The position numbers were made by a program, and so were the translations under genes. The notes beneath the pieces are model-generated. The model was not told the DNA's origin. It ran no database searches and saw only the letters and a program-made list of their open reading frames with translations. A DNA stretch of 64,000 nt. It comes from Malacoraja senta. Taxonomy: Eukaryota. Position 1 is the first letter of the stretch. The number at the start of each line of letters is the position of its first letter. This document shows, one piece after another, positions 5,071-59,500 of this stretch. The stretch spans positions 11,472,001 through 11,536,000 of the forward strand of contig CM075993.1 in assembly GCA_038087875.1 (NCBI GenBank), written 5' to 3'.

Positions 5071-7593
5071 GAAACTCAACACAAAATCTCAAGATCAGAA
5101 AGTATATCTGAAAGTTGAAGCCTTAAAACCCATTCTCTGTCGGGGTTCCTTGTTGGAGTCAAGAGAGGACGTATAGGGACAACTGTTGGATCTCCTGGAG
5201 TACAGGGGAAAGTAGCTGCCTTCCCAGTATTGATGCTTTTTGATCTCTGTGTGATCACAGGATCGTTTCCTGCTTTTTACAGTATTAAACTGCTGAGCAT
5301 TCTTCAGTTAATACTATGTTTTTGAAGACACAGGGAACTGCAGATGTTGGAATCATGAGCAGAATGCGCAGTGCTGGAGGAACTCAGTGGGTCAGGCGGC
5401 ATCTGTGGAGAGAATGGATGTGACATTCCAGGTGTAGAAGGAAACACCATCTGTCCATTCCCTCCTCAGATGCTGCCTGACCTGCTGAGTTCCTCCAATA
5501 CTTTGTGTTTTGCACTGTTTTTATGGATTAGTTCACCTGGTCAACCAGAATATTTCAGCGTTCGAGATACTAGCATCTGCAGTTCCTTGGAGGGCCGGTG
5601 AGGAGAGCAGCCATGGGAGGGAGTGCACGGCCTCGACGGGGGAGTGGCCGCTGGAGGCCCTGCAGCAGCCTGGGGCTCGGCTGGACCGGGCGCCGCTTCA
5701 AGAGGCCGAGCGCGTGGACCGGACGCGGCCTACAGCGGTGGAGCAGCGGCGGAGGTCACCACGGCTACGCTTGGCCAGGCCGACCCGGCAATGTCGCCAT
5801 GACAACGGGCCTTCATGGTCAGGTCAAGATCCCTGCACTTACAACAACTGGGACTTAGAAATGGCACCAAACTGGCGACTCTGTAAACTGTCTCAGTGTC
5901 CTGCTGCTACACACTGGTACTGTATCTGAGATACTTATCTAATATGTATCTTAGTGATTACATATAGTGATACTTTTACTGAACTGTATACAAAAATGTA
6001 TTTCACTGTACCTCGCTACATGTGACAATAAAGTACCGTTGAACCACTGTGAGAACCAGTTTCGAGATACAGTGCGGTAACAGGCCTTCCAAAGTCAGTC
6101 CCAATGAGTCCAAGCCGATCAGCGATCACCACACACCCTAGCATTATCCAACGCTCTAGGGACAATTTAAACTTTTACAAAAGCCAATTATCCTACAATC
6201 TTGTACATCTTTGGAATGTGGGAGGAAACTGGAGCACCCAGAGAAAACCCACGTGGTCACAGGGAAAATGTACAAACTCTGTATAGACAGCACCCCTAGT
6301 CAGGATCGAACCCGTGTCTCCGGTGATGCAAGGCAGCAACTTTGTCATTGCGCCACTGTGCTGGCCTTACTTACAATACCATTCGGGTCTCATCTTGATA
6401 CAACACAGTAGAAGGCCATTTGGGACATTGGTTCCCTGCTAGCTCCCATCGCTCCATACTCATTATTTCTCTATCGTGTGAAGTTTGACAATCATACATA
6501 ACCATAATCATAACACCAATTATGACAGATTACAAAATGTTAACATAGAGACAACACATGAGCGGCACGGCACGGTGGTGCAGCGGTAGAGTTGCTGTTT
6601 TACAGCGCCAGAGACCCGGGTTCGATCTTGTCTACGGGTGCTGTCTGTACAGAGATTGTACGTTCTCCCCGTGACCTGCGTGGGTTTTCTCTGAGATCTT
6701 CGTTTTCCTCCCGCACTCCAAAGGCGTACATTAGTTGTAGATTAATTGGCTTGGTGTATGGTCAAATTGTCCCTCGTGTCTCGGAGAGCGTTAGTGTGCG
6801 GGGATCGCTGGTTGGCGCGGATTGGGTGGGCCGAAGGGCCTGTTTCTGTGCTCTATCTCTAAATTAAACCAAACTAAACACAAAAACATTTCCACCACTC
6901 GGCAGCGGATGAAATCAGTTGGAGAAGGTGAATTTCTCCGGCATCTGTCCGTATCACTAAGGATGGGATGATTGATGCAGTGCTGGAATATTCTTCTCTA
7001 AAACATTCAGTAACACAAACTGGTGATGAATTATTTAACTGGTGGTGACTGCAAGCGTGCACAAGGATGCATCATTATAAGTGGGATGACCAACCGACTT
7101 CCACATTCATTAATTCACAAAACAGTTCAATCAATCTTGCCATTGAATGCCACGGGCAGTTGTGTCAAGTCTAATGCACTCACAACAGTTTGTACCAGCT
7201 GGTTTCTCGGGGATTGGCAGCAGCAACAATTAATTTACTCACTTCAAATAAATATGGGAAATTGTGGGGATATTAATGGGAAAATGCCTGTTTGTCAAAG
7301 ATGCCACAAGGGAGAGCTTTCCACACTTAAACTGAAGCTCGGATGTGTGTGTAGACATGTGCTAGAGTGGCTGCTTGTCTCTACGTCCATTCCAGCCTAC
7401 ACCATGAGGACAATCCTCTGTCTATCCTTCTCACTGAGGAGGGGAACCACAAACTGGAAATCCAAGCCTAGTTTCCAGTGAGCAAGAACACAAGACACAA
7501 AGGCCATCTGAATTTTGTGCCTGAAGTTTGAGTCTGAAGAAGGGTCTCAACCTGAAACATCACCCATTCCTGCCTGCCTGTCCTGCTGAGTTA

Positions 7594-7774
7594 AGGGCCT
7601 GTCCCACTTGGGCATCATTTGCGCGTCATGCAGATGGCGTGCGAAGATTTTGTACATCCCAAAATCCTGGGGCGGCGTGCGACCACGCGTCACTGCCTAC
7701 ATCTGCACGCACCATGCACGCGTCGTGATGCGTTAATTATGTCGCGTAAATGACGCTCAAATGGGACAGGCCCT
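7594..7774. mobile_element. PIF/Harbinger-like MITE
   Basis: TIRs agggcctgtccca... / ...tgggacaggccct. 3-bp TSD TTA at 7591-7593 and 7775-7777. Splits gctgag|tta|ctc of a Penelope-derived repeat. Confidence 0.85.
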
Positions 7775-7997: not shown

Positions 7998-8688
7998 AGA
8001 GTCATAGAGTGATACAGTGTGCAAACAGGCCCTTCAGCCCAACTTGCCCACTCCGGCCAACAATGTCTCAGCTACACTGTTTCCACTTGCCTGCGCTTGG
8101 TCCATATCCCTCCAAACTTGTCCTATCCATGGTAGACAAAAGTGCTGGAGAAACTCAGCGGGTGCAGCAGCATCTATGGAGCGAAGGAAATAGGCAACGT
8201 TTTGGGCCGAAACACTTCTTCAGACACTATCCATGTACCTAACTGTTTCTTAAACGTTGGGATAGTCCCAGCCTCAACTACCTCCTCTGGCAGCTCGTTC
8301 CATACACCCACCACCCTTGGTGTGAAAAAGTTATCCCCTCGGATTCCTATTAAATCTTTCCCCTTCACCTTGAACCTATGTCCTCTGGTCCTCGATTCCC
8401 CTACTCTGGGCAAGAGACTGCATCTTTCCGATTTATTCCTCTCATGATCTTATACACCTCTATAAGATCACCCCTCATGCTCCTGCGCTCCATGGAACAG
8501 AGACCCAGCCTACACAAGCTCTCCCTTTAGCTCACACCCTCTAGTCCTGGCAACATCCTCGTAAATCTTTTCTGAACCCTTTCAAGCTTGACAATATATT
8601 TTCTATAACATGGTGCCCAGAACTGAACGCAATATTCTACATGCGGTCTCACCAATGTCTTATACAACTGCAACATGACTCTCCCAAC
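7998..8688 (-). mobile_element. CR1 3' fragment; same subfamily at 14236-14440(+), 14590-14935(+), 55405-55600(-), 55710-55800(+)
   Basis: PRVGESRTRGHRFKVKG...WNELPEEVVEAGTIPTFKKQL; 3' end tgtatcactctatgactct. Confidence 0.82.
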
Positions 8689-8689
8689 T

Positions 8690-9775
8690 TATAAAGTCTA
8701 CTACTCCCAATTCTTCCGTCTACGCCACATCTGCGCCCATACTAGAACATCCAAGATGTCCTCATTCTTCATGGAACGTGGGTTCCCCTCTCCCATCATA
8801 GATGAGGCCCTCACTCGTGTCTCCTCGGTACCCCACAGTTCCGCCCTTGCTCCCCCTCCCCCTAGTCGCAACAGAGACAGAGTCTCCCTTGTCCTTACCT
8901 TCCACCCCATCAGCCGTCAAGTACAACACATAATCCTCCGAAATTTCCACCACCTCCAACGAGATCCCACCATTTGCCACATTTTCCCATCTCCACACCT
9001 TTCCGCCTTCCGCAGAGACCGTTCCCTCCGCAACTCCCTGGTTAACTCATCCCTTCTCACTCAGTCCACCCCTCCCCAGGTACCTTCCCCTGCAATCGCA
9101 GAAGATGCAACACCTGTTGCTATACCTCATCCCTCGACTCTGTCCAGGGACCCCGACAGTCCTTTCAGGTTAGGCAGAGGTTCACTTGCACCTCCTCCAA
9201 CCTCATCTACTGTATCCATTGTTCAAGATGTGGACTCTTATACATCGGCGAGACCAAACGCAGACTGGGCGATCGTTTCGCGGAACACCTTCGCTCAGCC
9301 CGCGTGAACCAACCTGATCTCCCGGTTGCTAAACACTTTAATTCTCCTTCCCATTCGTACACAGACCTTTCTGTCCTCGGTCTCCTCCATTGTCAGAGTG
9401 AGGCTCAACGCAAATTGGAGGAACAGCATCCCATATTTTGCTTGGGCAGTTTACAGCCCAGTGGTATGAACATTGATTTCTCTCACATCAAGTAGCCCCG
9501 GCATTCCCTCTCTCTCTAACCCTCCCCCACCCAAGTTGCACCAGCTTCTCGTTTTCACCCAACAAACAGCTATCAATAGCCTGTTTCCTTCATCATCGTT
9601 ACTTTTTTGCATATCTTTCATTCATTGTTCTTTATCTCTCCACAACACCGTCTATATCTCTCGTTTCCCTTATCCCTAACCAGTCTGAAGAAGGGTCTCG
9701 ACTCTAAACGTCACCCATTCCTTCTCTCCAGAGATGCTGCCTGTCCCGCTGAGTTACTCCAGCTTTTTGTGTCTG
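8690..9775 (+). mobile_element. Penelope-like element 3' part with GIY-YIG endonuclease and terminal repeat
   Basis: Frame from ~9199 reads NLIYCIHCSRCGLLYIGETKRRLGDRFAEH...VAKHFN...GSLQPSGMN. Upstream YSQFFRLRHIC and LVLTFHP motifs; frameshifted. Ends in the repeat that carries the hammerhead-like motif (9685). Possible TSD tctcccaac. Confidence 0.88.
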
Positions 9776-10681
9776 TCTCCCAACACATGTTGGTTCTCCA
9801 AACCTCGAATACAATCGAGCAATCCACAGTGTACAGATACAGGATAAAGGGAATAATGTTTATTGCAAGATAAATTCTGCTTAAACATAGTCCGAGGGTC
9901 TCCAATGAGGTAGATGGTAGCTCAGGACTGCTCGCTAGCTGGTGATAGTTACCTGCTAACAGCTGGGAAGAAACTGTTCCTGAATCTAGAGGTGTGCGTA
10001 TTCACACTTCTGTACCTTGATTGATTGATCGATCGATTGATTGATCGATGGGAAGATACAGCATGGCAACAGGCTCTTTGACCCACCGAGTCTGTACCCA
10101 TTCACACTAGATCTATGTTATCCCACTTTCTCATCCACTCCCTGGACAACAGAGGACATTTACAGAGGCTGATTAACCTGCATTTCTTTGGGAGGTGGAA
10201 GGAAACTAGAGCACCCGGAGGAAACCCACGCGGTCACAGGGAGAACGTGCAAACTCCACACAGACAGCACCCGAGGGCAGGATCGAACCTGGGTCTCTGG
10301 CGCTGTGAGGCAGCATCTCTCACAGTTGCGGAGTGTTTATGGACCAGCTCCATTTATACTTCGATGAGGCAGGACAGTACAGCCTTGACTTGAAACACTC
10401 ACTTACGTAATTGGTTTGTGCTGGTGTAGGGGTACATAAGGTAGGGAAACAGGGCCTTTGGGCCACCAAGTCCATGCTGACCATCTAGCACCCATTTACA
10501 CGAGTTCTACACTGATTCTATCTATTATTCTCCCCACATTCACATCACCCTCCATGTTCTACCCCTCACTTCCACTCCAGGGCCAATCACAGCAGCTAAT
10601 TAACCTGCCTCTGTCTCTGGATGTGGGAGGAACCAGAACCACCCCTGATAGAGGGTTCCAGACGTTTATCACTCACTAAAT

Positions 10682-15830: not shown

Positions 15831-15852
15831 TGGCAGATGAACTAAATGTTCT

Positions 15853-19520: not shown

Positions 19521-20362
19521 CTAGAAAACCAACAAAAGCTTCACAGCTTCAAAAACACCCGGCCTAGCCTTAACAAGTCCACATCTCAGGACCGGTCCCC
19601 ACACGGAAACTGGGGCACAGCGGTAGAGTTGCTGCCTCACAGCGCCAGAGACCCAGGGTCGATCCTGACCACGGGTGCTTGTCCATACATTCTTCCCCGT
19701 GACCTGCCTATGTTTTCTCCGGGTGCTCCGGTTTCCTCCCACACTCCAAAGACGTACGGTTGTAGGTTAATTGGCTTCAGTAAAAATTGTAGATTGTCCC
19801 TATGTTTAGGATAGTGAAAGTGTACTGGCCAGTCTGGACTCGGTGGGCCGAAGGGCCTATTTCCGCGCTGGATCTCTAAAGTCTAAAGTAAATTCTGAAG
19901 TGCTATTCTCCTGCCTTCTCCTCATAACCCTTGACACCCGTTCTAATCAAGAATTTCCCAATCTCTGCCTTGAAAATATCCACTGAGTTCTAGCGCGGAG
20001 TGCTGGCAACATCCTCGTAAATCTTCCCTGCACTCTTTCCAGCTTAACGGCTTCCATCCCATCGCACGGATCGTATTCCTGATCCTATTGAGGTCTGATC
20101 CATCCAGCTGGTGTAGGTCCCAAGGTGTCTGCCTCTAATTTTACAATAACCCCTGCCTTCCCTCTCCCTCCCCCTTCCTCCCTCCACCACCCTTGTCATC
20201 CTACTAGTTCCACTGTTCGCATCTTTGCATCCTTTTGTTATCACCTCTTCCCCAGCCAACAATGGACCATTATGAGCTCCACCCTTCCTTGGTCATCTGT
20301 TGCCAATCCTGCTTTGTTCTGGTCTTATCTTACCTCCGGTTCCCTCCCCCCCTACTCTCAGT

Positions 20363-20390
20363 CTGAAGAAGGGTCTCGACCCGAAACGTC
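20363..20390 (+). ncRNA. Minimal hammerhead-ribozyme-like motif (Penelope type)
   Basis: CUGAAGA-a-GGGUC-uc-GACCC-GAAA-C-GUC: CUGANGA box, stem II, GAAA box and NUH site with loop-less stem III. Stem I is only ~2 bp. Confidence 0.6.
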
Positions 20391-20804
20391 ACCCATTCCT
20401 TTCCTCCAGAGATGCTGCCTGTCCCGCTGACTTACACCGGCATTTTGTGTCTACCTTCGGTGTAAACCAGCACCTGCAGTTCCTTCCTGAACATCCTCGT
20501 CAATCTTGGCTGCCCTCTTTGCAACTTAACGGCATTTTTCCCATCACAAGGATTGCGTTCCTGATCCTATTGAGGAGCGATCCATCCAGCTGGTGCAGGT
20601 CCCAAGGTCTCCGAGCTATTGCCCTGGACTATCCATTCTCCTGATCATCTACCTGGGTCAGTACCTGTCGGCTCGTGGTCCTGGGAATAATCTGAAGCTT
20701 ACAACATTTTAATCGGTGTGCTGACTTAGTAATGTGTGCTTGCTAAACTCCATGCCTCCTGTTGTGGGTACCAGCAATGACCACAATCTCTGCCTCGTCA
20801 CCCA

Positions 20805-21066: not shown

Positions 21067-22399
21067 ACCCGCTTCAGAACACTCTGCAGCTAATCAGTGA
21101 CATGCCTGCCCTGGCACCAGACAGGCCACAGACCACCCTGGAGTTACCTCTCCTTCCCCATGAACTACTGAATCCCCCATCACCATTTTGATTGTAGATG
21201 CAGGCCAGGCAAGGCCATCACACAAACCAACCTCCCTTCCATTGACTCCATCTACACCTCACGCTGCCTCAGCAAGGCCAGCAGCATAATCAAGGACCAG
21301 TCTTATCCCGGTCACTCCCTCTACTCCCCTCTCCCATCAGGAAGTGTGAAAACGCACACCTCCAGATTCAGGGACAGTTTCATCCCAGCTGTTATCAGGC
21401 AACTGAACCATCCTATCACCAACTAGAAAGCAGTCCTGACCTACTAGCTACCTCATTGGAGATCTTTAATCAAACTTTACTGGGCTTGCACTAAACATTA
21501 TTCCCTTTGTCATGTTTAATTTAGTTAGTTGAAAGATACAGCGTGGAAAGAGGCCATTCGGCCCACCAAGTCCCTGCCAACCAGTGATCCCCACATACTA
21601 ACAGTATGTTACATACACTAGGGACAATTTAAAATTAAACCAAGCCAATTAACGTTCAAACTTGTACGCTTTTGGAATGTGGGAAGAAAGCGGAGATCCC
21701 GAAAAAAAGCCACGCAGGTCACGGGGAGAATGTACAAACTCCGTACAAACAGCATCTATGGTCAGGATCGAACACGGACCTCTGTGAGGCAGCAACTCTA
21801 CCGCTGCACCACTGTGCCACCTAGTGTATCTGTACACGGTGGATGGCTCGATTGTAATCATGTTTAGTCGTTCCATTCTTCTCCCTTCCCTCCTATGCGG
21901 TTGGTCCACGTGTTACCATCTCAATAAATAATAGACGATAGACACTAGGCAATAGGGGCAGGAGTAGGCCATTCGCCCCTACGAGCCAGCAACGCCATTC
22001 AATGTGATCATGACTGATCATCCACAATCGGTACCCCGTTCCTGCCCTCTTCCCATATCCCCTGACTCCACTATCTTTAAGAGCTCTATCTAACGAAAGC
22101 ATCCAGAGAATTGGCCTCCACTGCCCCATCCCCCCACCCACCAACCTGAGGAATCATCATCTCTCCGACACCACCCGAAAAAACAGGTCTGGTCCATTGA
22201 ACATAGAACAGTATGGGAACAGGCCCTTCGGCCCACAAACATAAAGCCAAGATACTCTCCTCTGCCTGCCTTCACCCTACAAACAGCTAACAATGTCGTT
22301 TCCTTTATCATCGTTACTTTTTTTGCATATCTTTAATTCATTGTTCTTTATCTCTCTACATCACCATCTAATCTCTCATTTCCCTTATCCCTAACCAGT

Positions 22400-22427
22400 C
22401 TGAAGAAGGGTCTCGACCTGAAACGTC
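22400..22427 (+). ncRNA. Minimal hammerhead-ribozyme-like motif
   Basis: ctgaagaagggtctcgacctgaaacgtc, same core, at the end of a Penelope 3' fragment (~22270-22530). Confidence 0.55.
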
Positions 22428-22988
22428 ACCCATTCCTTCTCTCCAGAGATGCTGCCTGTCCCGCTGAGTTACTCCAGCTTTTTGTGTCTTTCTTCGGTTT
22501 AAACCAGCATCTGTATTCCTTCTTACGCATAACGTCAGATGAGCAAAGTTTAAAGGATAGAAACGGGACCGGTTTTTTATAGAGAGAGTGATGGATGCCG
22601 TGAACGTCAGGGGCTGGTGATGAAGGCAGATATGATAGTGGCATTTAGAGGTTTTTAGATAGAGAGTAGACACGAAATGCTGGAGTATCTCAGCGGGACA
22701 GGCAGCTTCTCTGGAGAGAAGGAATGGGTGATGTTTTGGATCAAGTCCTTTCCAGAGACTTTAGATCGGTACAGGGAATGGAGGGGAATGGATCACATAG
22801 AGGGAGAGAGATTTGTTTAACGGTTTGATCGCCACAGACCTTGTGGGCAGAAGGGCCTGTTCCTGTGCTGGACTGATCAATGCTCTATTTAACAGGAGCT
22901 GTTTAAGTAACAACTGTGATATTAGTAAGGGACAAAGGAAGGTGAAGGGCAGGAATAATCTAGTTTGGGAAGCGTTAAAAGCTGGTAG

Positions 22989-23451
<463 letters not shown>

Positions 23452-25363: not shown

Positions 25364-25391
25364 CTGAAGAAGGGTCTCGACCCGAAACGTC
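25364..25391 (+). ncRNA. Minimal hammerhead-ribozyme-like motif
   Basis: ctgaagaagggtctcgacccgaaacgtc, identical to the 20363 copy. Confidence 0.6.
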
Positions 25392-38121: not shown

Positions 38122-38164
38122 AACGGTTGGGGGGAGGAACTCAAATAGAGAAAGCTAGTAGAAA

Positions 38165-40906: not shown

Positions 40907-40937
<31 letters not shown>

Positions 40938-41712
40938 ACAAATAAATAAAAAATTGTTCGGCACGGACTTGAAGGGCCGATATGGCCTGTTTCCGTGCTG
41001 TAATGGTTATATGGTTATATGGTTATATGGTGTGTGTGTGTGTGGAGTTTGCATGTTCTCCATGTGACTGGAGATTGGCAGGTTCTTGATTAGTACGGGT
41101 GTAGGGGGAGAAGGCAGGAGAATGGGGTTGAGATGGAGAGACAGACTAGCCATGATTGAATGGTGGAGTAGACTCGACGGGCCGAATGGCCTAATTCTGC
41201 TCCTATAACTTATGAACCTATGACCGCCTGGGTTTCCTCCGGGTGCTCAGATTTCCTCCCATATTTGAAAGATGTGCGGGTTTGTAGACTTATTGGCCTC
41301 TGTAAATTGCCCCGACTCTGTAGGGAGTGGACGTGAAAGTGGAATAACATGAAACGTGTGATCAATAGTTGCCATGGATTTGGTGGGACGAATGGCCTAT
41401 TTTCATGCAGTATTTTTCAATCAATTCAAGACATGAATGCCATCACAGAATCGTACAACATGGAACAAGACTCTTCAGTCCACCGAGTCCACGCTGAAAA
41501 TCAAACATCTTATTTACTAATCCTACACTAGTACCAGTTTTTTTATTCTCCCCAAATCCTATCAATTCTCCCCAAGATTTACCAGGAGAGATCAACACTC
41601 GCCAATTAACAAAAAGCAGTATGTCTTTGATTCTGAAGAAGGGTCTCAACCCGCAATGTAACCCATTCCTTCTCTCCAGAGATGCTGCCTGACCCGTTGA
41701 GTTACTCTAGCA

Positions 41713-42007: not shown

Positions 42008-44003
42008 CTCTAGCATTTTGTGTCCATCTTTGGTTCAAACCAACATCTGCAGTTCCTTCCTACAGAATATCTTTGAGTGTGGGAGGAATCAGAATATCTG
42101 CGGGAAAGCATGGGAGGTGACAGGGTGCAAACTCCACACAGACAGCACTGGCCCTGGGTCACTGGAGCGGTGAGGCAGCAGCTCTAGAGGGAAGCCAATT
42201 AACCTACAACCCTGTACGTCCTTTGGGGTGTGGGAGGAAATCAGAGCACCAGGTAAAAACCCAAGTGGTCACGGGGAGAACGTACAAACTCCATACAGAC
42301 AGCACCCGTAGTCAGGATCGAACCCGGGTCTCTGAGGGGATAACAGGTTCAACATTTCTGAAAAGTTACAAATGGTTGGATTCTGTATTGTAGATTTCTT
42401 ATAAACATTCTTGGTAATTTTCACTTCATGCCCACCAGTGACAGCTCCTTCACTACCCCCTCCAACAATTCCTCCTTTCATTCCTTCTTCAATTGTGTCA
42501 TTACTAAGCACGTGGTGAAAAATGAAGATGAATGTTTGTAGAGAGTCGACAATACAGATCTCCGGCAGAGTGTCGCTGCTGCCTCCACACACTGCACCAA
42601 AGACACAAGTTCGATCCTGACCACGGTTGTTCTTGGTGTGGGGTTTTGACATTTTCCCTGTAGGTTTCCTCCCACATCCCAAAGACATGCAGGTGTGTAG
42701 GTTAGATTGGCCCTCTGCATATTGTCCCTTGTGTGTAGGAGTGAGGAAGTGGGGTAACATAGAACGGGTGATCGGTGGTCGGCATGGACTCAGTGGGCCG
42801 AAGGGCATGCATTCTAAACTAAACAAAAACTAGTGAAATAATTGGAGAGGTTTGGAGAAGATATTCCAGAGCAAAGACTGACGACAGCATGAGCATGGAA
42901 ACAGGTTCTTCGGCCCATGTCGACCAAGGTCAGGAGCAAAGCCGTGTCTCTGGCATTGTGAGGCAGGAGATCAAACAGCGAGGCTATTGCACCATGTTCA
43001 AGATGCCCTTAAAACTTGCTCGTTTGTTTCATCTTTTGGACACCTGCCCACCTATCCATATAAAACAGATGTTAACATTGATAAGGTCGCCTGTTAATTC
43101 CAGTTTAGTTTAGTTTAGAGATACAGGGCGGAAACAGGCTCTTTGGCTCACCGTGTCCGCGCCGACCAGCGATCCCCGCACACCAACACGATCCTACACA
43201 CTAGGGGCAATTTACATCAGAAGCCAATTAACCTACAAACCTGTACGTCTTTGGGGTGTGGGAGCACCAGGTAAAAACCCACATGGTCACGGGGAGAACG
43301 TACAAACTCCGTACAGACAGCACCCGTAGTCAGGATCGAACCCGGGTTTCTGGCGGTGTTAGGCAGCAACTCTACCGCTGTGCCACCGTGCCACCCTAGA
43401 GGAGTATAGAACTCATCTGGTGGAGTTTGCAGAGGCACAAACACACAAGCCAACCTGGGAAGCTATCCAGGCATTGCTGTTCATGGATTTAGCTTCCAGC
43501 ATTGCACCATGGTGAGAATGATCTAAAATCATCTTATGTAGGAAGGAACTGCAAATGCTGGTTTAAACCGAGGATAGACACAAAGGCTGGACAGATAGCA
43601 TCTCTGGAGAGAAGGAATGGGTGACTTTTTTAGTCGGATCTGAAGAAGGGTCTCAACCCGAAATGTCACCCATTCCTTCTCTCCAGAGATGCTGCCTGTC
43701 CCACTGAGTTACTCCAGCACTCTGTATCTAAAATCGTCTTGATGGAAGTAGTCAGAGGGTGGTAATAGAAGGCATTCTTCACATTGGAGATTTGTGACCA
43801 TCAGTGTGGAGCAGGGATCGTTGCTGGGTCCACTGTCAGGTTGTTGTATGTATATATCATTTGGATAAGAATATAGTTGGTATGTGACGGACTTGAGGAC
43901 CTGAGCTGTATGGCGAGGTTGGCAGACTGAGACTTTATTCCTTGGAGTGCAGGAGGCTGAGGGGTGATCTTATAGAGGTGTATAAGACCATGGGTGGAAT
44001 AGA

Positions 44004-44700: not shown

Positions 44701-47700
44701 GTCTGTTAGGCTAGACCCCGGTCTGTTAGGTTAGACAACCACACCTCTTCAACCCTCACCCTGAACACCGGCATTCCACAGGGCTGTGTGCTGAGCCCTC
44801 TCCTCCCTCTTCACCTACGACTGCACACCTGTACATGGTACTAACACCATCATCAAGTGCAGATGATCAGGGCCGGCCTTAGGAGGTGCGGGGCCCCAAT
44901 TGGGAATTTTTTTTATAGTAATATAAATATATAATTATAAATGAGATATTCAGGCATGTGTCATGAGTAATATGAGCCAGTCGGCTTAAAATCTTAAACC
45001 GCACGCGCATGCGCAGATTGTTCTCTCCGTAAAAATTAAAATAAATAAAGTAACAATTCAATTTGCCCACGGCTTCCAAATCTCCTTCTGAATTACTGAA
45101 TGGGTGGGGGGTGGAGGGTGACGGCAGGTGGAAAGATGGTGGGAAAAACAGGAGCACACCGGGACAACATGAATCAGTTGTCATCTTATTGAATGACTAT
45201 ACTTGTTCAAGGGACCAATTGGGGGAGAGTCCCTTTCACAGCATGTGGGGAGTCTAGCCAGGGGTAAAGTTGCGGGGGAGGGCGGGGAGCGTTGAGAAGG
45301 AGGGGGTCGGGTTCATTGCCAGTAACCCACTCACTCACCGCTGCCACGGCGCTCCGTGCACCACCACATTGCGGCCGGGGAGGGAAGCAGCTCACGTGGC
45401 TACGAGCGGCCTCCATCACCGGACAGCGGAACCGACTGCCATCTCAGCACCTTCTGCCGGCCCGCTCACCTCTGTCTGAACAGTGAGGAGACCGGCTCAA
45501 GAGCAAAGATCATAGAGCGGAGCGGGTCAGCGGGTGATGGATAACATCACAGCGGGCGGTGGAGCTTACTCCTGTGCCAGCTGCGAACAAGGGATCAATT
45601 GAGGTTACTCACCCTGATACATGGAGTAAGCTCCACCGCCCGCTGTCCTGTTATCCATCGCCCGCTGGCCCGCTCTTGAGCTGGATGCTGGCCATGATCC
45701 CCGACCCCCTCCTTCTCAACGCTCCAGCCCTCCCGCAACTTTACCCTGGCCAGACTACCCACACGCTGTGAAAGGAACTCTGCCCCCCCCCCCCCAGCAG
45801 CGCTGTCCTTTTACAGCCGCTTCCCACTTTACAGCCTCTTCCATCAGCTGCTAGCAATGAGGGATAGACAGCTATCCCTCAGTACAGCAACATCGTTCTC
45901 GATGTTGCTGTACTGAGGGATAACAAAGTCTATCTTTCTTGGCTAACAACCTAACCTTCGGCCTCCAAGATGCAGGTACATTTTCTAGCAATGTTACAAA
46001 ATTTTGTGATTTAAAAAAATCAAGTCTGCAATTTACCCCATCAGATAAAGCATAAAAAGACGTTTAAATTTGACACCTAATTCACTTTCATATCTTCAGT
46101 ATAAAAACGTTATGGCCATTTTCATACTCTCGGAAATTAGCATCTTGTTCCCTATTGCTTTTCCATTGACTTAACACAAAAGCTGTGATCGAGGACAGTC
46201 AAAAGCCCACAACTTTCTTAAAAATTAAGAGAACTGAATGAAAATTTCAGCATTTCAGCATTCTGAAACAATATACAACATCTTACTTGGATGACCTGAA
46301 ATTAAAGCATATAATTAGTTAATTACCTAATTGTAGCTCATTACAAAATTGACCGTTGACGGAAATAGTAATAAACACCCAGACTGCTTGAAAATACAAA
46401 AATGTGATATTCTCAAGCTCAGAAATTTAATATTATTGTATTATATGCTGTAAATCCGTAACAGATAGGTAAATAAATTACAATTTCTAGTAATAGACCA
46501 GGTCTTTATGGGGAAGATCAGTTGCTAGCTGGTACATTGGCATATTCATAATCAGTAGCATCATCATACTCTCAGATTGTAACCAATAAGCAACTCTGTA
46601 CACCTTGTTTTTCCTCAACTTTTCAATTTTGGCATTGTAAACTACAGGGTTTTGCTCTTCAAACCACGCATGACATGCCTTTCTGCCACTACTTTCCCAT
46701 TAAGAATGTCCTGTAGATTCCATTTCTTAAGAAAAGGATAATTTTTAAAAATAGCTAAGTATCCAAATGTCAACTAATCCCATTCACACAAGAATATAAC
46801 ATGATTTTTAAATCTCACTGTCATGAATTTATATGTCAGATCAGTGATGGAAATGGGTTTTAGGAACTAGAGGTACACTAAGGTCCATGGGGCTGAGGTT
46901 GGGAGGAAGGGGGAGGGTGCGGGTGGGGGAGGTAGACGCTATAAGCCCCCCCATGAGAAATTTTATCTAACTCTGAAATTGAAGATAGACAAAAGCTGGA
47001 GTAGCTCAGCAGGACAGGCAGCTCAGCGACTCTGGAGAGAAGACCCTTCTTCAGACTGAACTGAACTCTCATCGGTGAGAGTACTTGTGATTGTCTGAAG
47101 AAGGGTCTCGACCAGAAACGCAACCCTCTCCCCAGAGCCCCTGCCCGTCCCGCTGAGCCACCACAGACAGGGAGTTGAAGGTAGTCCACCTTCAACTTCA
47201 GAGCCAAACAAAAAACACAGAGTGCTGGAGGAACTCAGCGGGCAAGCAGCACCCGCGGAGGGAACATATCACTTATTTTCGCGAGCATTTCTAAACGTAG
47301 TTTCCAGTGACCGTTTGACGAAGTAACTAGCAGTGCCAGGACTACACAACGCACTAACGTCTGAGGCAGGGTGTCCAACGGCGGAGGTAATGTTCACCGA
47401 AAACATTTATTATAAACGTGGTAACAACATACAAGGAAGGGTCCCAAGGGTCACTCGGCCCAAATAACGCTAGGCTACAGATAGACACAAAAAGCTGAGT
47501 AACTCAACGGGACAGGCAGCATCCCCGGAGAGAAGGAATGGACAACGCTTGGCTTTGGCAGCTTTCGGCCTCGTGAGGTGTTATAAATATTGACCTCGGT
47601 CAAAAAAAGCTGAAACAGGGCAGGTGACATATTTAACTAACTTTAAAATCTCCAGTATTGCACTGCACCCACATACAGACATGGCTCCATGTATCACAGA

Positions 47701-49525: not shown

Positions 49526-49667
49526 AATCTATTCCACCCATGGTCTTATACACCTCTATAAGATCACCCCTCAGCCTCCTGCACTCCAAGGAATAAAGTC
49601 TAATTAGTCTGCCAACCTCGCATATAGCCTCAGCCTCAAGTCCCGGCAACATCCTCGCAAAGCTTCT

Positions 49668-49867
49668 NNNNNNNNNNNNNNNNNNNNNNNNNNNNNNNNN
49701 NNNNNNNNNNNNNNNNNNNNNNNNNNNNNNNNNNNNNNNNNNNNNNNNNNNNNNNNNNNNNNNNNNNNNNNNNNNNNNNNNNNNNNNNNNNNNNNNNNNN
49801 NNNNNNNNNNNNNNNNNNNNNNNNNNNNNNNNNNNNNNNNNNNNNNNNNNNNNNNNNNNNNNNNNNN
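49668..49867. other. Assembly gap (200 N)
   Basis: Run of N. Confidence 1.
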
Positions 49868-52845
49868 ATCTGTGGAATTCTTTGCCACAGAAGGCTGTGG
49901 AGGCCAAGTCAATGGATATTTTTAAAGTAGAGATAGATAGATTCTTGATTAGTACGGGTGTCAGGAGTTATGGGGAGGAGGCAGAAGGATGGGGGTTGGA
50001 TGGAGAGATAGATCAGCCACGATTGAATGGTGGAGTAGACTTGATGGGCCAAATGGCCTAATTCTGCTCCTCTGACCTTATAACCATGGTTTGGGAACTG
50101 CTCCATCCAAAACGGCAAATAATTGCACAGAATTGTGGACGCAGCCCAGACCATCACACAAACCAACCTCCCTTCCATTGACTCCATTGACACTTCACGC
50201 TGCCTCCATAAGGCCAGCAGCATAATCAAGGATCAGTCTTAGCCTGGCCAATCCATCTTCTCCATTCTCGCATCGGGCAAATTCTACAGAAGAATGAAAA
50301 TCACAGTCTACCCCACGACAGAAGGGGGAGGAGTTGTACAGTTTTGGTACACGTGACAATAAACTAAACTGAACCAAACGAATTAATCTACTCATTTCTG
50401 ATTTCATATGATCTCTGTCTCATTTGGACTATGCTGCTTTGTAGCAAATGCCACCCACTGTAATTCTCGGTAGACAAAATTGCTGGAGAAACTCAGCGGG
50501 TGCGGCAGCATCTATGGAGCGAAGGAAGGGTTTTGGCCCAAAACGTTGCCCATTTCCTTCGCTCCATAGATACTGCCGCACCCGCTGAGTTTCTCCAGCA
50601 ATTTTGTCTACCTTCGATTTTCCAGCATCTGCAGTTCCTTCTTGAACAGTGTAATCCTCTCCATGTTCTGTACCAGAGGTTTCAAATATTATTAATATGG
50701 ACTACAAGTTGAGTTTTCAGTGCATGTGGATTTCTTCTGAGAATGAGGGTCTTACCTGAAAAAGTCCTCTAAACCAAAGTAAAATATCATTAATATCATT
50801 AAGTGATTAAAACAGAACAGAAAATATTTACCATGCTCAACAGGTCAGGCTACATCTGTGGGAGGAGAGACTTTAGACTTTAGAGGTACAGCTCGGAAAC
50901 AATTTTTTCGGCACCATCCAGCCATCATCCCGTTCACAAACGCTATCCCACGCTCACTAGGGACAATTTACAATTTTACCAAAGCCAATTAACCTACAAA
51001 CTCGCACGTCTTTGGAGTGTGGGATGAAACCAGAGCAACTGGAGAAAACCCACACGGTCACAGGGAGAACATACAAACTCCGTACAGACAGCACCCGTGG
51101 TCAAACCAGAGCACCTGGAGAAAACCCACATGGTAATTTATAAAGGCCATTTAGCCGGCACGTCTTTGGGATGTGGGAGGAAACTGGATCACTCAGAGGA
51201 AACCCACAAGGTCACTGGAAGAGCATGCAAACTCCACGCGGACAGCACCTGAAGTCAGGATCGAACCAAGATCTCTGGTGCTGTGCGGCAGCAGCTCCAC
51301 CTGCTGTGCCACGTTGCTGTCCTTCGAGCATGAGTGACCTTGGGGGAGTATCTGCGGACTTCTCTCATTCATTTGATCTCCCATCTGGGCCCTGCGCTGA
51401 AGATCACTTATATACGTGCAACACATTAAGATTTTGTGATAATTTGTGTACATGCTCAGAGGTAACTGTTTATATACTGGGGCAGGATGACAGAAGTGAT
51501 CAATGCACCAACATTAAGAGCAGTTAATCCCGAGTCCCCAGTGTAAACAATCAAATGGCGCAGCGGTAGTGTTGTGCCTCACAGCGCCAAAGATATGGGT
51601 GTTGTCTATGTGGAGTTTGTATGTTTTCCCTGTGACCACGTGGGTTTCCTCCAGGTGCTCTGGTTTCCTCCCACATCCCAAGACGTGCAGGCCAAATGGC
51701 CTTTGTAAATTACCCCAAGTGTGTAGGGAGTGGATGAGAAAGTGGAATAACACATAACTGGTGTGAACATGGTTGGCGTGGATTCGATGGGCGAATATAA
51801 AGCTGTATCTTTAAAGTCTGTTCAATGCACAAGGAGAACAAGTTTGGTTTATTTAGTATAAATATTTATTATATTTCAATCCACACACATTGGCAAATGC
51901 AGTATTTCAAAGTCACAGTCTGCTGGTTTTTGATTTATTTTACAAGATTCATGCTAGCGGCGACGTTTGATGAAGAGAACAGAAACATAAGAAGGCCATT
52001 CGGCCCTTCGAGCCTGTTCTGACCCCACCCAAACACCATTTTCCTGCATCAATCCTGTAATCAAAACGCAAAGTGCTGGAGGAACTCAGCAGGTCAGGCA
52101 GCATCTGTGGAGGGGCTGGATGGGTGACGTTTCAGTCTGAAGGAGGGTCTCTAACCGAAGTGGCATCTGCCCATTTCTCTCCACTTGTACTGCCTGACCC
52201 ACTGAGTTCCTCCAGCACTTTGTTTTTTGCTCAGGATTCCAGCATCTGCAGTTCCTGGTGTCTCAATCCCGTATGGCTTTGAATCCCACGGTATCCAACA
52301 GCCTTCTGAATCAGTGAGAATGGGTCCCAACCCGAAACGTCACCTATCCACGTTCTCCAGATACGTTGCCTGATCCGCTGAGTTACTCCAGCACTTTGTG
52401 TCTATTTTAGTTGTTGTCAACCAGCATCTGCAGTTCCTTGTTTCTTGCCTTACATTCTCTATCCTGCATACAGCCTCGCAGTGAAGAATTCCAAAGACGT
52501 CCAGGTTTAAGTTAATTTGCTTCGTATAAGTATAAATTGTCCCTAGTGTGTGGAGGAAAGTGTTCATGTGTGGGGATCGCTGGTCGGTGCGGACTCGGTG
52601 GGCCGAAGGGATACAGTTTCTGCACTGTATCTCTAACCGAAACTGAATTACCCCGTCAATCTCTAAAATAATTCCCTCTCAATTGCACACCTCTCATTTT
52701 TCTAACCTCTACAGAGTGCTCTCTTCATTGGATAATGTCCCCATCCCCATAAGTCAAATGAATAAATGTCCACCACTCGTTCTGTCAAGAATGTACTCTT
52801 CCTTGGTTAAAGAGACTAGACCTGCACACAATAGCACAGTCTGCT

Positions 52846-53535: not shown

Positions 53536-56500
53536 CCAGGGCCCCTATACTTGTTCAGTCAGGTTTTGTTTAGAGATACAGCGCAGAAACAGGCCCTTCG
53601 GCCCATCGAGTCCACCCCGACCAGAGATCCCAGCACATTAACACTATCCCACACACACACTAGAGACCAATTGCGATTTTTACCGAAGTCAATTAACCTA
53701 CAAACTTGTACATTTCTGGAGTGTGGGAGGAAACTGGAGTACCCGGAGAAAACCCACGCAGGTCACAGGGAGAATGTACAAACTCCATACAGATAGCACC
53801 CATAGTCAGGATCGAACCCGGGTCTCTGGCGCAGTAAGGCAGCAAATCTACTGCAGCGCCACCGTGATGCCCTAATCTTCACTCTTGCTTTGATTGAATG
53901 ATCAGTGTGGCCCACCGAGCCCATGCCGACCCGTTCATACTAGTTCTATGGTTGGAAAGGAATTGCAGTTAGTGGTTTACACCGAAGATAGACACAATAT
54001 GCTGGAGTAACTCAGCCGGACGGATAGCAGTTTCTATCGAACCCCTTCTTCAGACCCGAAGTGTCACTTCCTTTTCTCCAGAGGTGCTGCCTGCCCGAGA
54101 GTTTTTCCAGCATTGTGCTTCTGTCCGCACTAGATCTATGTTGTCCCACTTCCTCAGCCGATCATTACACATTCGGGACAATTTACAGAACCCAATCAAC
54201 CTACAAACCCGCACGTCTTTGGAATGTGGGAGATAACCAGAGCACCCAGAGGAAACCCATGCAATCACGTGGAGAACATGCAAACTCCAAACAGACAGTA
54301 TCCATGGTCAGGATCGAACCTAGGTTTCTGGCGCTGTTTCTACCAGATGCGTCACTAAATCTCTTGAGGAGAACCAGTCTGTAAAGGTTGGAAGAATCAA
54401 AGATGGTGCAATTGGGAGAGAATTCTTTCAGGGATTGATGGGGTAAATGGTTGCTGGATAATTGCCACTCCTTGCCTCGGTGTTAACTGTGTGTGGACAG
54501 TTGAATAATGACATTCTTACTTGCAGCTGCATAATAGGCCTAGAAATACAATACACAGAGATAATATATAATAAACAAAGGTTATTAGACAAATAATCCC
54601 AATACTAGTCCAAAAAGGAGCAAACTTCTTAGTTCATCCTACGACACTCACTCCATAGTTTATCAGCCTGGTGATTGTCGGGATGATAGTATTCTGAACC
54701 TGGTGGTCAGCTTTTCACACTCCTACTTCCTAATGTTAAGGATGGAACTGCAGATGCTGGTTTAAACTGAAGATAGACACAAAATGTTGGAGTAACTCAG
54801 CGGGACAGACAACATCCCTGGAGAGAAGGAATGGGTGACGTTTCGGGTCTATGTTCCCGATGTTGGGGGAGTCCAGAACCAGGGGCCACAGTTTAAGAAT
54901 AAGGAGTAAGCCCTTTAGAACAAAGACGAGGATACACTTTTTCTCACAGAGAGTGGTGAGTCTGTGGAATTCTCTGCCTCAGAGGGTGGTGGAGGCCAGT
55001 TCTCTGGATGCTTTCAAGAGAGAGCTAGATCGGGCTCTTAAAGATAGCGGAGTCAGGGGATATGGGGAGAAGGCTGGAATGGGGTACTGATTGGGGATGA
55101 TCAGCCATGATCACATTGAATGGCGGTGCTGGCTCGAAGGACCAAATGGCCTACTCCTGCACCTATTGTCTATTGTCTGATGTCTGTCTGACGAAGGTCT
55201 GAAGAAGGGTCTCGACATGAAACGTCACCCATTCCTTCTCTCCAGAGATGTTGCCTGTCCCGCTGAGCGACTCCAGCATTCTGTGTCTATCTTAGGTACA
55301 GGGCAGCACAGTGGTAGAGTAACTCCCCAACTGCCTGGGTGAATGCAGCACCAACAACCATCCAGGGTGGAGCAGCCACATCAACGAGAAACAAGACATA
55401 GAGGCATAGAGTGATACAGTGTGGAAACAGGCCCTCCGGCCCAACTTGCCCACACCGGCCAACATGTCCCAGCTACACTGGTCCCACCTGCCTTCGTTTG
55501 GTCCATATCCCTCCAAACTTGTCCTATCCATGTACCTAACTGCTTCTTAAACGTTGGGATAGTCCCAGCCTCAACTACCTCCTCTGGCAGTAGTTCCATA
55601 CATTGTTCCATACATCCACCACACACGGACCCCCCCCCCACACACAACCCCGTCCAGACCCATGTCCGGTTCAGCACCTCCCGCCGGACCCCCGGCTCTC
55701 CAGCCCCGCAGGCAGGTGGGACTAGTGTAGCTGGGGCATGTTGGCCGGTGTGGGCAAGTTGGGCCGAAGGGCCTGTTTCCACACTGTATCACTCTATGAC
55801 CTTCACCCCCCCCCCCCCCCATCCCCTCCCTCACACATAGTGTGTTGCTCTCGCCACCTCCGGCCGTTCTGTGCGCCTCTGGGTTTAACCCCGGTGAAAA
55901 GCCCCGACTCTCGGCTCGGAGAGTCGCTTCTTGTCCCCCGATCCCGAGACCCCAGCGCCCGTGTCTAGCACCCGCCCCCCCCCCCCTCGCCAACCACAAG
56001 ACCCCGGAGATTACTGCCTGGGGTCCCGGGTCGGAGACAGGGGGTCCGGTGTCCGGTGTCCGGTGATGGGGAGGGGTACTGGGCGGTGTGGGTCCGGGGC
56101 GGAGATAGAGGCACACAGCGTGAAAACAGGCCCTTCGGCCCAACCTGCCCATGCCGACCATCAACTCTTTGGAGAGAGGAGGGGCGGAGATAGAGAGAGT
56201 AGATCGGGCCAGTGTACACCTGGAACAGGGATTGCTCGATGTACCCTGATGAAGGGCCTCAATATTCGTGTCATCGTTGACCGCAGTACAATACCTGGTC
56301 TCCCCCCCCCCCCCCCTACAACTGATGTGGAGGAAGGAACTGCAGATGCTGGTTTACACCGAAGTTAGACACAAAATGCTGGAGTAACTCAGTGCGACAG
56401 GCAGCATCTCTGGAGAGAAGGAATGGGTGACGTTTCGGGTCGAGACCATTCTTCAGACTGAGTCAGGGGAGAGGAAAACGAGAGATATAGACGGTGATGT

Positions 56501-59500
56501 AGAGATATATAGAATGAAAGATATGCACTATCAGGTGACGATGATAAAGTAGACAGGCCATTGTTAGCTGTGGGCTAGGTGAAAAAATGTTAGAGACAAT
56601 GAGACTCAACATGGCGACTTTGAAACTAGTACAACAACTTTGGTGGGGGATGGAGAGAGAGAGAGAGAGAGCGAGGGGATGCAGAGGTTACTTGAAGTTA
56701 GACAAATCAATATTTGCAATGACCTTTGGCAAGGAATCTCCAAAGGAGCATCACCCCTATATAGAGAGAATCAAACTTCAAGCGCAGAGCATGTTGTACA
56801 TACCCGGCACTGGGGGAGGGGGGGGGGGACTAGGGGGGTGGGGGCAGTAGGGGGAGGGGGGGGGGGACAGGTGCGAGACTATTTCACTGAACATAGAAAC
56901 ATAGAAAATATGTGCAGGAGGAGGCCATTTGACCCTTCGAGCCATTGTGATCATGGCTGATCGTCCCCTATCAATAACCCGTGCCTGCCTTCTCCCCATA
57001 TCCCTTGACTCCACTAGCCCCTAGAGCTCTATCTAACTCTCTCTTAAATCCATCCAGTGACTTGGCCTCCACTGCCCTCTGTGGCAGGGAATTCCACAAA
57101 TTCCCAACTCTCTGGGTGAAAAAGTTTTTTTCTCATCTCAGTCTTAAATGACCTCCCTTTATTCTTAAACTGTGGCCCCTGGTTCTGGACTCGCCCAACA
57201 TTGGGAACATGTTTCCTGCATTTAGCTTGTCCAGTCCTTTTATTATTTTATATGTTTCTATAAGATCCCTTGTGCAGACGAGTGTGTTGGGGGGGGGGGG
57301 GGGTGTTCCGAGTCCGGGATCAGGGGACGTTGCAGGCGCTACTCTGATGCAGGACCCAGTGAGGGAGGAGCGGACGGAACCGACCCACCCTCGCCCTCCC
57401 TTGAAGTCGCTGCCGGACAGCGGGCGGAGATCATCACCCCGACGGCGGCGCAGATCCCAATCTCCCCTCCCCCCCCACCCCACCTCCTGCCAGTCTCCCG
57501 CAGCCCCGGGGTGGGATTGACTGAGCAACCCCCGGGTAAGGGGTCCCCGTAGGACCCAGGCCCCTGAACCGCGCTCCCCTCACCCTTGCCCCGTCCGCGG
57601 CGCCACACCAATGCAACTGCCGGAGCGCACTGCTGAGAATCAGCGAAGATAGACACAAAATGCTGGAGTAACTCAGCGGGACAGGCAGCACCTCTGGAGA
57701 TGACCTTTCGGGTCGAGACCCTTCTTTTCGACTCGAAACCTCACATTCCTTCTCTCCAGAGATGCTGGCCGACCCGCTGAGTTACTCCAGCACTTTGTGT
57801 CTGTTTTCGGTGTAAACCAGCATCTGCAGTTCCTTCCCACATGCTGAGAATCTGCTTTATCGGGGCTGGTACCCACACATGGCTCTTCCCGTGGACACTG
57901 GACTCCGGCCGGCGTGGCTGAGCGAAGCCCCCCCCGTCAGTGCAAGGGTCGGGCCAGGAACCAAGGAGAACCTGGTGCGGAATAATTTGTAACTTTGTCA
58001 GCGGTCTTTACGTGGCGACTCTTTGCATACCTTGGGTGCGCTAGCAATGAGTTTCACTGTGACAATGAAGATGGGTCTCGACCCGAAACAGCGCTTATTT
58101 CCTTCGCTCCATAGATGCTGCCTCATCCGCTGAGTTTCTCCAGCATTTTTGTCTACCTTCGATTCTTCCAGCATCTGCAGTTCCTTCTTAAACATGAAGT
58201 ATTCATTCCTCCCTTCATTCATTAATTCATTCATTCATTAATTCATTCATCCATTCCTACATTGCTCCATACTGCCCCCACAAGACACCCAGTGCCTGGT
58301 CGCCCCCCTGCCCGCCAGTACTGCAGAGTGACTCCAGGGGGCGTGCAGGCCAATCTTACATTCTCAACATTATTGCCCTTGATTATAACTTCATATGTGA
58401 TAGGAGCAGAATTAGGCCATTCGGCCCATCAAGTCTACTCCACCATTCAATCATGGCTGATCTATCTCTCCCACCTAACCCCATTCTCCTGCCTTCTCCC
58501 AAATAACCTCTGACACCCGTACTAATCAAGAATCTATCTACCTCTGCTTTCAAATATCCACCGACTTGGCCTCCACAGCCTTCTGTGGCAAAGAATCCCA
58601 CAGATTCACCACCCTCTGACTAAATAAATTCCTCCTCATCTCCTTTCTCCATGTGAAGAAGGGTCCCGACGGAGTCAGGGGATATGGGGAGAAGGCGGGA
58701 ACAGGGTACTGATTGGGGATGATCAGCCATGATCACATTGATCGAATGTGCTGGCTCGAAGGGCCACATGGCCTGCTCCTGCACCTATTGTCTATTGTCC
58801 CGTACCGTCAACTCGCCACGTTCTCCACAGATGCTGCCCGACCCACTGAGTTACTCTGGCAACAGACACAACGTGCTGGAGTAACTCAGCGGCTCAGGCA
58901 GCATCTCTAGAGTAAAAAGGATGGTTGACGTTTCAGGCCAGGACCCTTCTTCAGACTGAACGTAGAGAGGAGGGAACTGGAGGTAAGAAAAGGCCAGAAC
59001 AACGCAGGGCCGGCAATAGATGACCAAGGATCATGCAGCCCATTGTGGGCTGGGGAAGAGGTGATGATAAAGGGATATGAGGATGCGAAGTGGAATTAGA
59101 AGGACGACTAGCATTGGGGGTGGACGGAGAGAGAGGGGATGCAAGGGTTACTTGAAATTAGAAAGATAAAGATTCATACCGCTGGGTTGTAAGCTGCGCT
59201 AGCGATATATGAGGTGCTGTTCCTCCAATTTGCGTGCGGCCTTACACCGGCACTTTGTGCCTTTTTTTTTGGTAAACGGGCATCTGCAGTTCCTTGTGTC
59301 TACATCCCCGCTCACATGGAAAGTTGGTTCTTCAATACTGTACTGGACACGCGAGGCCGATCGGCCCATAACGATATCGCTGCCTCCCTACCCTGCAACG
59401 CCACTGCCGCAGGGGAAATGTCCATGCTCCCCTCCCGCGATAAACTCGGGATAAACCCCGGAAAACAGCTCACAACACAAACAAAACCAGCAGAAACCCG

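Follow-up and report, generated by a model that had tools for sequence, protein, structure and literature searches.

Recurrent minimal hammerhead motifs in a Malacoraja senta genomic window and their probable origin from a Penelope-like retroelement

Short motifs resembling the hammerhead ribozyme recur throughout 64,000 nucleotides of Malacoraja senta DNA (GenBank assembly GCA_038087875.1, contig CM075993.1, positions 11,472,001 to 11,536,000; hereafter the window, whose own numbering is used throughout). The question that this locus raises is whether these repeats are self-cleaving modules acting in the RNA of a host gene or remains of the retroelement that spread them. The original prediction, made from the DNA letters, described a high-copy minimal hammerhead spread through an intron by Penelope-derived repeats. 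It is highly probable that the repeats derive from the 3' end of a Neptune-type Penelope-like element (PLE) as 5'-truncated insertions, copied mostly from uncleaved template RNA, and that the copies in the window are fossils that affect host RNA little or not at all.

The hammerhead motif and its carrier

The motif was found at all twelve positions that had been named. The exact copies are 20363-20390 and 25364-25391, the copy at 22400 has a single change (C11.1 to U), variants lie at 7534, 9685, 27722, 41633, 43640, 47095 and 55199, and antisense copies lie at 56429-56456 and 58927-58954, at most 1 nt from where they had been placed. The motif proved to be even more numerous than predicted. 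A fuzzy search of the window, which had no control run, gave 22 matches (14 plus, 8 minus), and a profile made from 13 window copies gave 54 matches at E<=0.01, 23 of which span the hammerhead, against 0, 1, 0, 0 and 0 in five shuffles. This corresponds to about 0.8 profile matches per kb. All but one of the 54 (28480-28587 was left out) were aligned to the reference, and these 53 cover 4,792 bases. The descriptor search that had been proposed as a check was also positive: a homology-free descriptor matched five loci (20363, 22400, 25364 and 43640 on the plus strand; 58927 on the minus strand) and none in 100 shuffles. An Rfam scan of the window gave no hammerhead family among 27 matches at E<=10, and its hairpin-type matches were rejected as inverted pairs or chance. 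Scans of metagenome and viral contigs with the motif pattern gave 0 and 0 loci.

The majority sequence and the copies at 20363 and 25364 contain all 11 bases of the core CUGANGA...GAAA...UH. An extra A stands between A9 and position 10.1, followed by the G10.1-C11.1 pair. Stem II has 4 bp and a 4-nt loop, and its cells are paired in 90.9% across copies; it had been drawn as 5 bp with a 2-nt loop, an arrangement that cannot form. Stem III is loop-less, with a palindromic ACGU at 15.2-16.2 in subfamilies A and B, and its pair is C-G in 13 of 22 rows and U-G in 3. Stem I is indeed as short as predicted, with 2 bp and a U-A closing pair. In the consensus published for PLE minimal hammerheads (Cervera and de la Pena 2014, PMC4209133), the same core is joined by one additional base ahead of 10.1 and by the G10.1-C11.1 pair, stem III is a palindrome with no loop, and the sequence on the 5' side is U-rich. 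The window motif with its GIY-YIG carrier agrees with this consensus. On sequence grounds, the identification as a Penelope-type minimal hammerhead is right, and the arrangement was already known.

The carrier is best seen in the frame 9046-9495, which matches the Pfam GIY-YIG domain (E 3.4e-4, 21.3 bits, just under the cut-off of 22.6) and has a CX4CXXC cysteine linker ahead of it that is also present in homologues. Homologues of the carrier protein made up 45 of 176 candidates. The best of them is 76% identical and comes from a skate, and the top named homologues are from skates, rays and sharks (56-76% identity). Four homologues of 889-897 amino acids with a reverse transcriptase (RT) domain are 46-49% identical, and both of the two that were scanned show RT and GIY-YIG. 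A cysteine linker of this kind distinguishes Neptune-like elements from Penelope and Poseidon (PMC8557442, PMC3846280), and the Neptune clade is known from vertebrates (bioRxiv 10.64898/2026.07.22.740005). Because this linker is the mark of Neptune-like elements, the carrier is most probably a Neptune-type PLE of cartilaginous fish, and a very abundant one. The element is arranged as the end of the open reading frame (ORF), a pseudo-long terminal repeat (pLTR) of about 190 nt, the hammerhead and a tail. The hammerhead begins 190 nt downstream of the GIY-YIG stop codon (9495), and the same holds at 56714 and 59235; pLTR sequence is kept in five copies (9683, 20361, 22398, 56323 and 58828). The motif is present at the end of the GIY-YIG fragment (9685), as predicted, but has lost the catalytic G12.

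Other pieces of the carrier were also observed. Two minus-strand fragments of the endonuclease C-terminus (27361-27498 and 33751-33885) have near-identical boundaries and end 5-10 nt past the stop codon; the former is fused in frame behind a hammerhead tail via a short microhomology, and the latter lies between two 3'-end copies of another element. In the main subfamily (20363-20495 and similar), one frame without an ATG is open across the hammerhead and the long tail; it is in phase with the ATG site of the anole element and, by eye, is not kept in subfamily B. The stingray protein P0009, annotated as 'divergent protein kinase domain 1C', is mostly the RT-endonuclease end of the element followed by a few other residues, which hints at use of the donor-like site where the ORF stops. 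Two further proteins, P0001 and P0002, are likewise host-element chimeras.

Copy ends and the route of insertion

The ends of the 53 aligned copies are not scattered. Five copies reach into the pLTR, and 13 of the other 48 begin within -2 to +4 of the 5' edge of the hammerhead (p=2.5e-6 under a naive uniform null). By eye, the upstream flanks of these edge-starting copies are unrelated to one another and to the pLTR. Accumulation of 5' ends at the cut site was considered and rejected, with 2 of 48 in the window (p=0.6). The 3' ends fall into two clusters about 38 nt apart, with 25 at model positions 91-105 and 19 at 125-135 (2 lie between and 7 are shorter). Neighbouring copies form 11 head-to-head pairs, 7 of which have one long and one short arm, 2 tail-to-tail pairs and 3 same-strand pairs. 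5' truncation, inverted adjacent copies and an optional tail of 30-40 bp, all typical of PLEs, are present in the window. It has been reported that PLEs carry a one-sided optional tail of this length and inverted adjacent copies (PMC8557442, PMC3846280), and that the anole element has two internal start sites, uses unprocessed RNA and cleaves only with the element protein (PMC11167929). In the same work, cleavage was dispensable for insertion in vitro, and RNA reads ending at the cut site were absent. In the window, the two clusters of 3' ends and the inverted pairs match these published tail and inverted structures and the two anole start sites.

Public contigs matching 8640-9800 (299,324 and 174,352 records in two runs from one study, with the kind of contig unrecorded) say nothing on expression or RNA ends. 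Contig depth is not copy number and the counts are saturated; with this limit, summed depth is 2.9 million just upstream, 43.6 and 78.7 million over the hammerhead and tail, and at most 5.8 million over the endonuclease in the bins listed. Loose ends before 9681 occur in at least 1,270 and at least 953 contigs in the two runs, and joints leading from the tail end to 9680-9684 in at least 77 and at least 59. Loose ends at the cut site are absent among the 12 listed of 3316 loose-end rows.

The sharp common 5' edge of the short units, these tail-to-edge tandem joints and a summed depth over hammerhead and tail bins about 7-18 times that of the best endonuclease bin listed (as depth, not copy number) could also point to a separate non-autonomous element of the short interspersed element (SINE) or retrozyme type with its own amplification. 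Animal retrozymes are reported to stem from pLTRs and to be present, as hammerhead-bearing tandem repeats, in one chondrichthyan (bioRxiv 10.64898/2026.07.22.740005). We regard such a separate element as unlikely: the identical hammerhead and tail are also attached to the pLTR and endonuclease, the window has no long tandem array (its three same-strand neighbours are all defective), and two 3' ends together with inverted pairs are expected from the mechanism of the full element itself.

What, then, is the 5' edge? The pile-up there probably reflects the 5' end of the RNA, with transcription starting at the initiator-like CAGT at the hammerhead 5' edge, which we take to be an initiator motif. 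A description of such a pile-up was not found in open-licence papers and preprints. The edge could instead be a splice acceptor, the pLTR being an intron with its donor at the ORF stop, so that splicing would alter stem I or the template end. A pyrimidine tract followed by CAG ends the pLTR in each of the five copies that keep it, with acceptor scores of 5.4-8.1 (scores above 7 are reached by 3% of AG sites). At the ORF end, a donor-like site (4.5-7.5) is present in 4 of the 6 copies scanned; home-made matrices served for both scores. P0009 seems to run from the ORF end into other sequence, and an intron of Drosophila virilis ends at helix I (PMC4209133). However, the same bases can also be read as the presumed initiator, the short copies have no upstream exon sequence in common, and no clean donor-to-acceptor joint is among the 15 listed of 659 joints. 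In addition, a U-rich 5' flank belongs to the general minimal hammerhead consensus (PMC4209133). Splicing at the edge is doubtful, if slightly less so than a separate short element. The variant in which a spliced upstream exon lengthens stem I was rejected, as no upstream sequence is common to the short copies.

The preferred reading of the repeats as truncated insertions copied from uncleaved RNA would imply the following route. The source element would carry a minimal type I hammerhead between pLTR and tail; if this ribozyme cuts, it would do so after GUC, as a dimer held together by the ACGU palindrome, and it would probably depend on the element protein. Reverse transcription would begin internally, at either of two points some 38 nt from each other, use mostly uncleaved template, and often stop at the 5' edge of the hammerhead, most likely the RNA 5' end. 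The outcome would be inserts of hammerhead and tail of 95-135 nt, often as head-to-head pairs, a pattern that is observed in the window. After insertion, copies would decay neutrally, fastest at three CpGs.

Folding predictions bear on whether the source ribozyme works. In the isolated perfect motif, stem II has a predicted probability of 0.96-0.99. Helix I has at most 0.0002 in monomers, and its 2 bp compare with the usual 3-5 bp; in the published set, a helix I of 2 bp is found in 6 of the 56 listed rows and always consists of two G-C pairs (PMC4209133). A competing hairpin, formed by the G-rich strand and a second ACCC just past the cut site, reaches 0.83-0.99 with 3 upstream bases. It is predicted at 0.72-0.94 in the subfamily B copy 63779 and at 0.01-0.12 in 52314. 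The rival hairpin as a universal feature was rejected, since it is weak at 52314 and does not form in that register at 56456 and 58954. If the source ribozyme cuts, it would probably need help from the protein because the competing hairpin is predicted to hide the core. The active dimer is predicted at -6.1 kcal/mol, whereas the best dimer folds reach -23.7 and -28.1; this gap is overstated because the energy model ignores the tertiary core. Head-to-head pairs are predicted to form long duplexes on either strand.

Several of these results, and some others, weigh against the reading of a hammerhead-bearing Neptune-type source. With at least 12 downstream bases, stem II falls to 0.01 or less in both perfect copies because the G-rich strand pairs with the second ACCC, and it is 0.02 in 20363 with 150 nt upstream added. 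The rival helix is paired as well as stem II across copies (90.9%). The closing U-A pair of stem I is weaker than in the published 2-bp cases with their two G-C pairs. The covariation check suggested with the original prediction gave no signal for the hammerhead fold over shuffles: 456 of 500 shuffles attain the score of the 22 window copies, and the base changes in the stems are one-sided wobbles. The consensus of the loose contig ends at the 5' edge is weakly pLTR-like (agreement 0.36), which suggests that some of them and part of the depth step are diverged pLTRs and not true junctions. Furthermore, the assignment to the Neptune clade comes from the linker rather than from a tree, the RT core being absent from the window fragment.

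The same folding results raise the possibility that the hammerhead is vestigial, that is, that the source no longer cleaves and the sequence is kept as a promoter, protein-binding hairpin or reading-frame start. The competing hairpin is predicted to predominate in both subfamilies (A and B), stem I is very short, the anole element inserts in vitro with no need for cleavage (PMC11167929), and hammerhead-less Naiads spread well. Against this, the anole ribozyme is silent alone and cleaves with protein (PMC11167929), and the competing hairpin is weak in the 52314 copy. By eye, subfamilies A and B have four differences in the motif (loop, 11.4, H17 and 1.1), which are tolerated or keep a wobble and none of which falls in the core, although the number is small. 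A vestigial hammerhead is improbable in our judgement.

A broader proposal builds on truncated insertion from uncleaved RNA and is tentative, with the balance somewhat against it. The genome may hold a fossil record of the PLE life cycle, in which a short RNA beginning at the hammerhead 5' edge is copied uncleaved from two start sites, the RT jumps template (giving tandems) or switches strand (giving head-to-head pairs), and the rival hairpin acts as an off-switch until the protein refolds it. If so, and given their density in the window, these SINE-like units might be among the most numerous ribozyme-derived repeats in a vertebrate and would provide a large sample for mapping template ends.

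State of the copies, the putative host gene and other contents of the window

Integrity was scored in the 23 profile matches spanning at least 25 of the 28 motif positions. Two are perfect (20363 and 25364) and five, these two among them, fit the relaxed descriptor, with G.U at 10.1-11.1 in 22400 and 58927; each of the remaining 18 is damaged by loss of a base of the core or of the pairing in stem III, at 10.1-11.1 or in stem II. The window contains no intact tandem pair. The claim of ten or more potential self-cleaving modules did not hold up against these counts.

Divergence was counted in 19 non-B copies, selected for spanning the motif, which favours conservation. Differences at non-CpG positions occupy 12 of 187 core cells (6.4%) and 90 of 1004 tail cells (9.0%), and the core, whose greater conservation over its flanks had been proposed as a test of function, is not significantly more conserved (Fisher p=0.32). 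The six CpG positions of the motif differ in 28 of 114 cells (p=1.4e-5 vs core). Decay is concentrated at three CpGs, hitting C11.1/G12 and the stem III palindrome. Likewise, in the public contigs G12, which lies in a CpG, accounts for 74% and 77% of depth, compared with 91% and 94% for a non-CpG stem base (these being the two motif positions among the 40 listed of 223 depth rows). The pattern is neutral decay; it is no evidence that the copies function, and a functional source is compatible with it. The lack of extra core conservation is expected of dead retroelement copies and is no argument against a working source ribozyme.

It had been predicted that the repeats lie in an intron and that antisense copies are in host pre-mRNA. 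An intron is likely given a plausible minus-strand first exon (Table 1; donor score 6.5, CpG observed/expected ratio (o/e) 0.76 at 73% GC), but it is unproven: the 40-residue frame from 63041 has no protein match among 121 candidates, which is weak evidence, and two simple scans with reading of translations recognised no internal host exon in the unique segments listed. Matches below the putative exon number 29 plus and 23 minus, with no clear strand bias; a bias against the host sense was considered and rejected as unclear on these counts. The effect on host pre-mRNA is not borne out, as both perfect copies are antisense to the putative host and the sole descriptor match in its sense is the weakened 58927.

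If the exon 63041-62954 is real, 23 of 52 matches below it are in pre-mRNA sense, and the best minus-strand copy, 58927-58954, retains all 11 core bases; in Xenopus, fewer retrozyme copies are reported in introns than between genes (bioRxiv 10.64898/2026.07.22.740005). Even so, it is very improbable that a large number of intronic copies work as modules cutting or regulating host pre-mRNA. The two perfect copies and two of the three other descriptor matches are on the plus strand, no nearby minus-strand partner has an intact core and stems (56429-56456 has no G10.1), head-to-head pairs are predicted to fold into long duplexes, and the host gene is putative and unconfirmed. Published monomers were uncleaved and dimers weakly cleaved (PMC4209133), and among nine Xenopus dimers eight were uncleaved and one was cleaved (bioRxiv 10.64898/2026.07.22.740005).

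Table 1. Hammerhead-bearing copies, their carrier and the putative host exon in the window
Feature	Position	Strand	Basis or status
Neptune-type ORF 3' end (RT end, cysteine linker, GIY-YIG), frameshifted, 5'-truncated	8690..9495	+	Pfam, homologues
pLTR body, pyrimidine-rich, CAG right before hammerhead	9496..9684	+	alignment with the other four pLTR-bearing copies
Hammerhead (G12 lost) and short tail, end of GIY-YIG fragment	9685..9778	+	
pLTR, perfect hammerhead (20363-20390), long tail	20134..20495	+	
Partial pLTR, hammerhead with G10.1.U11.1 wobble (22400-22427), long tail	22271..22532	+	
Solo perfect hammerhead (25364-25391), short tail; starts at hammerhead 5' edge	25360..25465	+	
Complex insertion: minus hammerhead and tail joined to endonuclease C-terminal piece, then plus defective hammerheads 27636, 27722	27361..27817		
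Head-to-head pair; plus arm 43640-43667 with core kept, U.G in stem III, 1-bp stem I	43533..43737		
ORF end, pLTR, hammerhead without G10.1 (56429-56456), long tail	56323..56714	-	
Endonuclease end, pLTR, hammerhead 58927-58954 (core intact, G.U closing, 1-bp stem I), short tail	58862..59235	-	
Solo defective copy; stem III palindrome destroyed by CpG decay	7532..7593	+	
Subfamily B solo copy (UUCG loop, GUU cut triplet), G12 lost	8124..8225	-	
Solo defective copy, A13 lost	41631..41712	+	
Head-to-head pair, two defective arms	46975..47157		
Subfamily B head-to-head pair; one long, one short tail	50463..50650		
Head-to-head pair, then tandem third copy; all defective	52063..52446		
Solo copy, stem II broken	55198..55308	+	
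Head-to-head pair, 5' core lost	57615..57845		
Head-to-head pair; one long, one short tail	60989..61195		
Subfamily B solo copy (A9 changed), upstream of putative host start	63687..63779	-	
Putative host first coding exon (Kozak-like ATG, GT donor, CpG island, TATA-like box upstream)	62954..63041	-	unconfirmed

Other features were also observed in the window. The head-to-head spacer 47041-47093 has a small perfect 7-bp hairpin, which resembles the last bases of the pLTR. On the plus strand, 30396-32897 is an uninterrupted 833-codon frame with RT and weak zf-RVT matches, lying in an AT-rich block (33% GC) that is followed by poly-A, which we take to be a young L1/Tx1-like insertion. A near-full-length, frameshifted element at 37555-40892 (plus), presumably CR1-like, has GDSL esterase, AP endonuclease and RT frames, and 35934-36327 is an inverted partner of its 3' end at 95%. 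Another non-LTR element is represented by fragments at 44236-44730 (minus, with a Pfam ALKBH8_N match) and 48515-49352 (plus), which have a 181-nt inverted repeat in common at 99%. An abundant dispersed short repeat on both strands (e.g., 6148-6370, 42168-42354 and 53653-53876) resembles a tRNA-derived SINE and is presumably the HE1-type SINE of cartilaginous fishes. One 15-16-bp tandem array and two long simple-repeat tracts lie at 15837-16151, 22906-23385 and 26061-26368. The CpG-rich, unique-looking segments 13050-13500 and 11700-12150 (o/e 1.2 and 0.88) lie at a distance from the putative promoter and are probably young element insertions. Assembly gaps at about 4500-4700 and 49640-49850 (400 N in total) fall within non-LTR fragments.

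Comparison with known systems

The window adds a cartilaginous-fish case of Neptune type to a hammerhead class described in 2014, with presumably intronic copies that are mostly dead. A pile-up at the 5' edge with no peak at the cut site backs the in vitro uncleaved-template result in a second clade, from genomic copies. Compared with the minimal hammerheads of PLEs (Cervera and de la Pena 2014, PMC4209133), the window motif has the same core, extra base after A9, G10.1-C11.1 pair, loop-less stem III and U-rich 5' flank and the same location behind the GIY-YIG ORF. In both, copies are mostly solo and truncated, and opposite-strand neighbours 100-700 bp apart occur. The layout is the same as that of the hammerhead of Neptune from Acropora in that paper, whose 56 listed rows contain no cartilaginous fish (no shark, Callorhinchus or Leucoraja entry). 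The window motif differs in its 2-bp stem I with a U-A closing pair and in a duplicate of the 3' strand of stem II just past the cut site, which makes the competing hairpin possible. Relative to the Neptune clade, the RT end, cysteine-rich linker, C-terminal GIY-YIG and homologues of about 890 amino acids are the same, whereas the window holds only a frameshifted 3' part.

Animal non-LTR retrozymes (Li et al. 2026, bioRxiv 10.64898/2026.07.22.740005) are alike in being short, non-coding, pLTR-related type I hammerhead units, many of them monomers. As defined in that preprint, a retrozyme is a tandem repeat in which two or more units in a row hold a complete hammerhead, and the window has none. 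Tandem joints exist elsewhere in the genome according to the public contigs, whereas same-strand neighbours in the window never have two intact motifs.

A further parallel is Poseidon of Anolis carolinensis (Frangieh et al. 2024, PMC11167929). In both systems, the 3' end takes one of two positions some 100-135 nt downstream of the hammerhead, priming of both strands and unprocessed RNA as template are shared (as proposed for the window), and ends do not accumulate at the cut site. The clade differs, and the anole ORF has its ATG inside the hammerhead, while the main window subfamily has no ATG there. The available text on Poseidon makes no mention of a 5'-end pile-up at the hammerhead edge.

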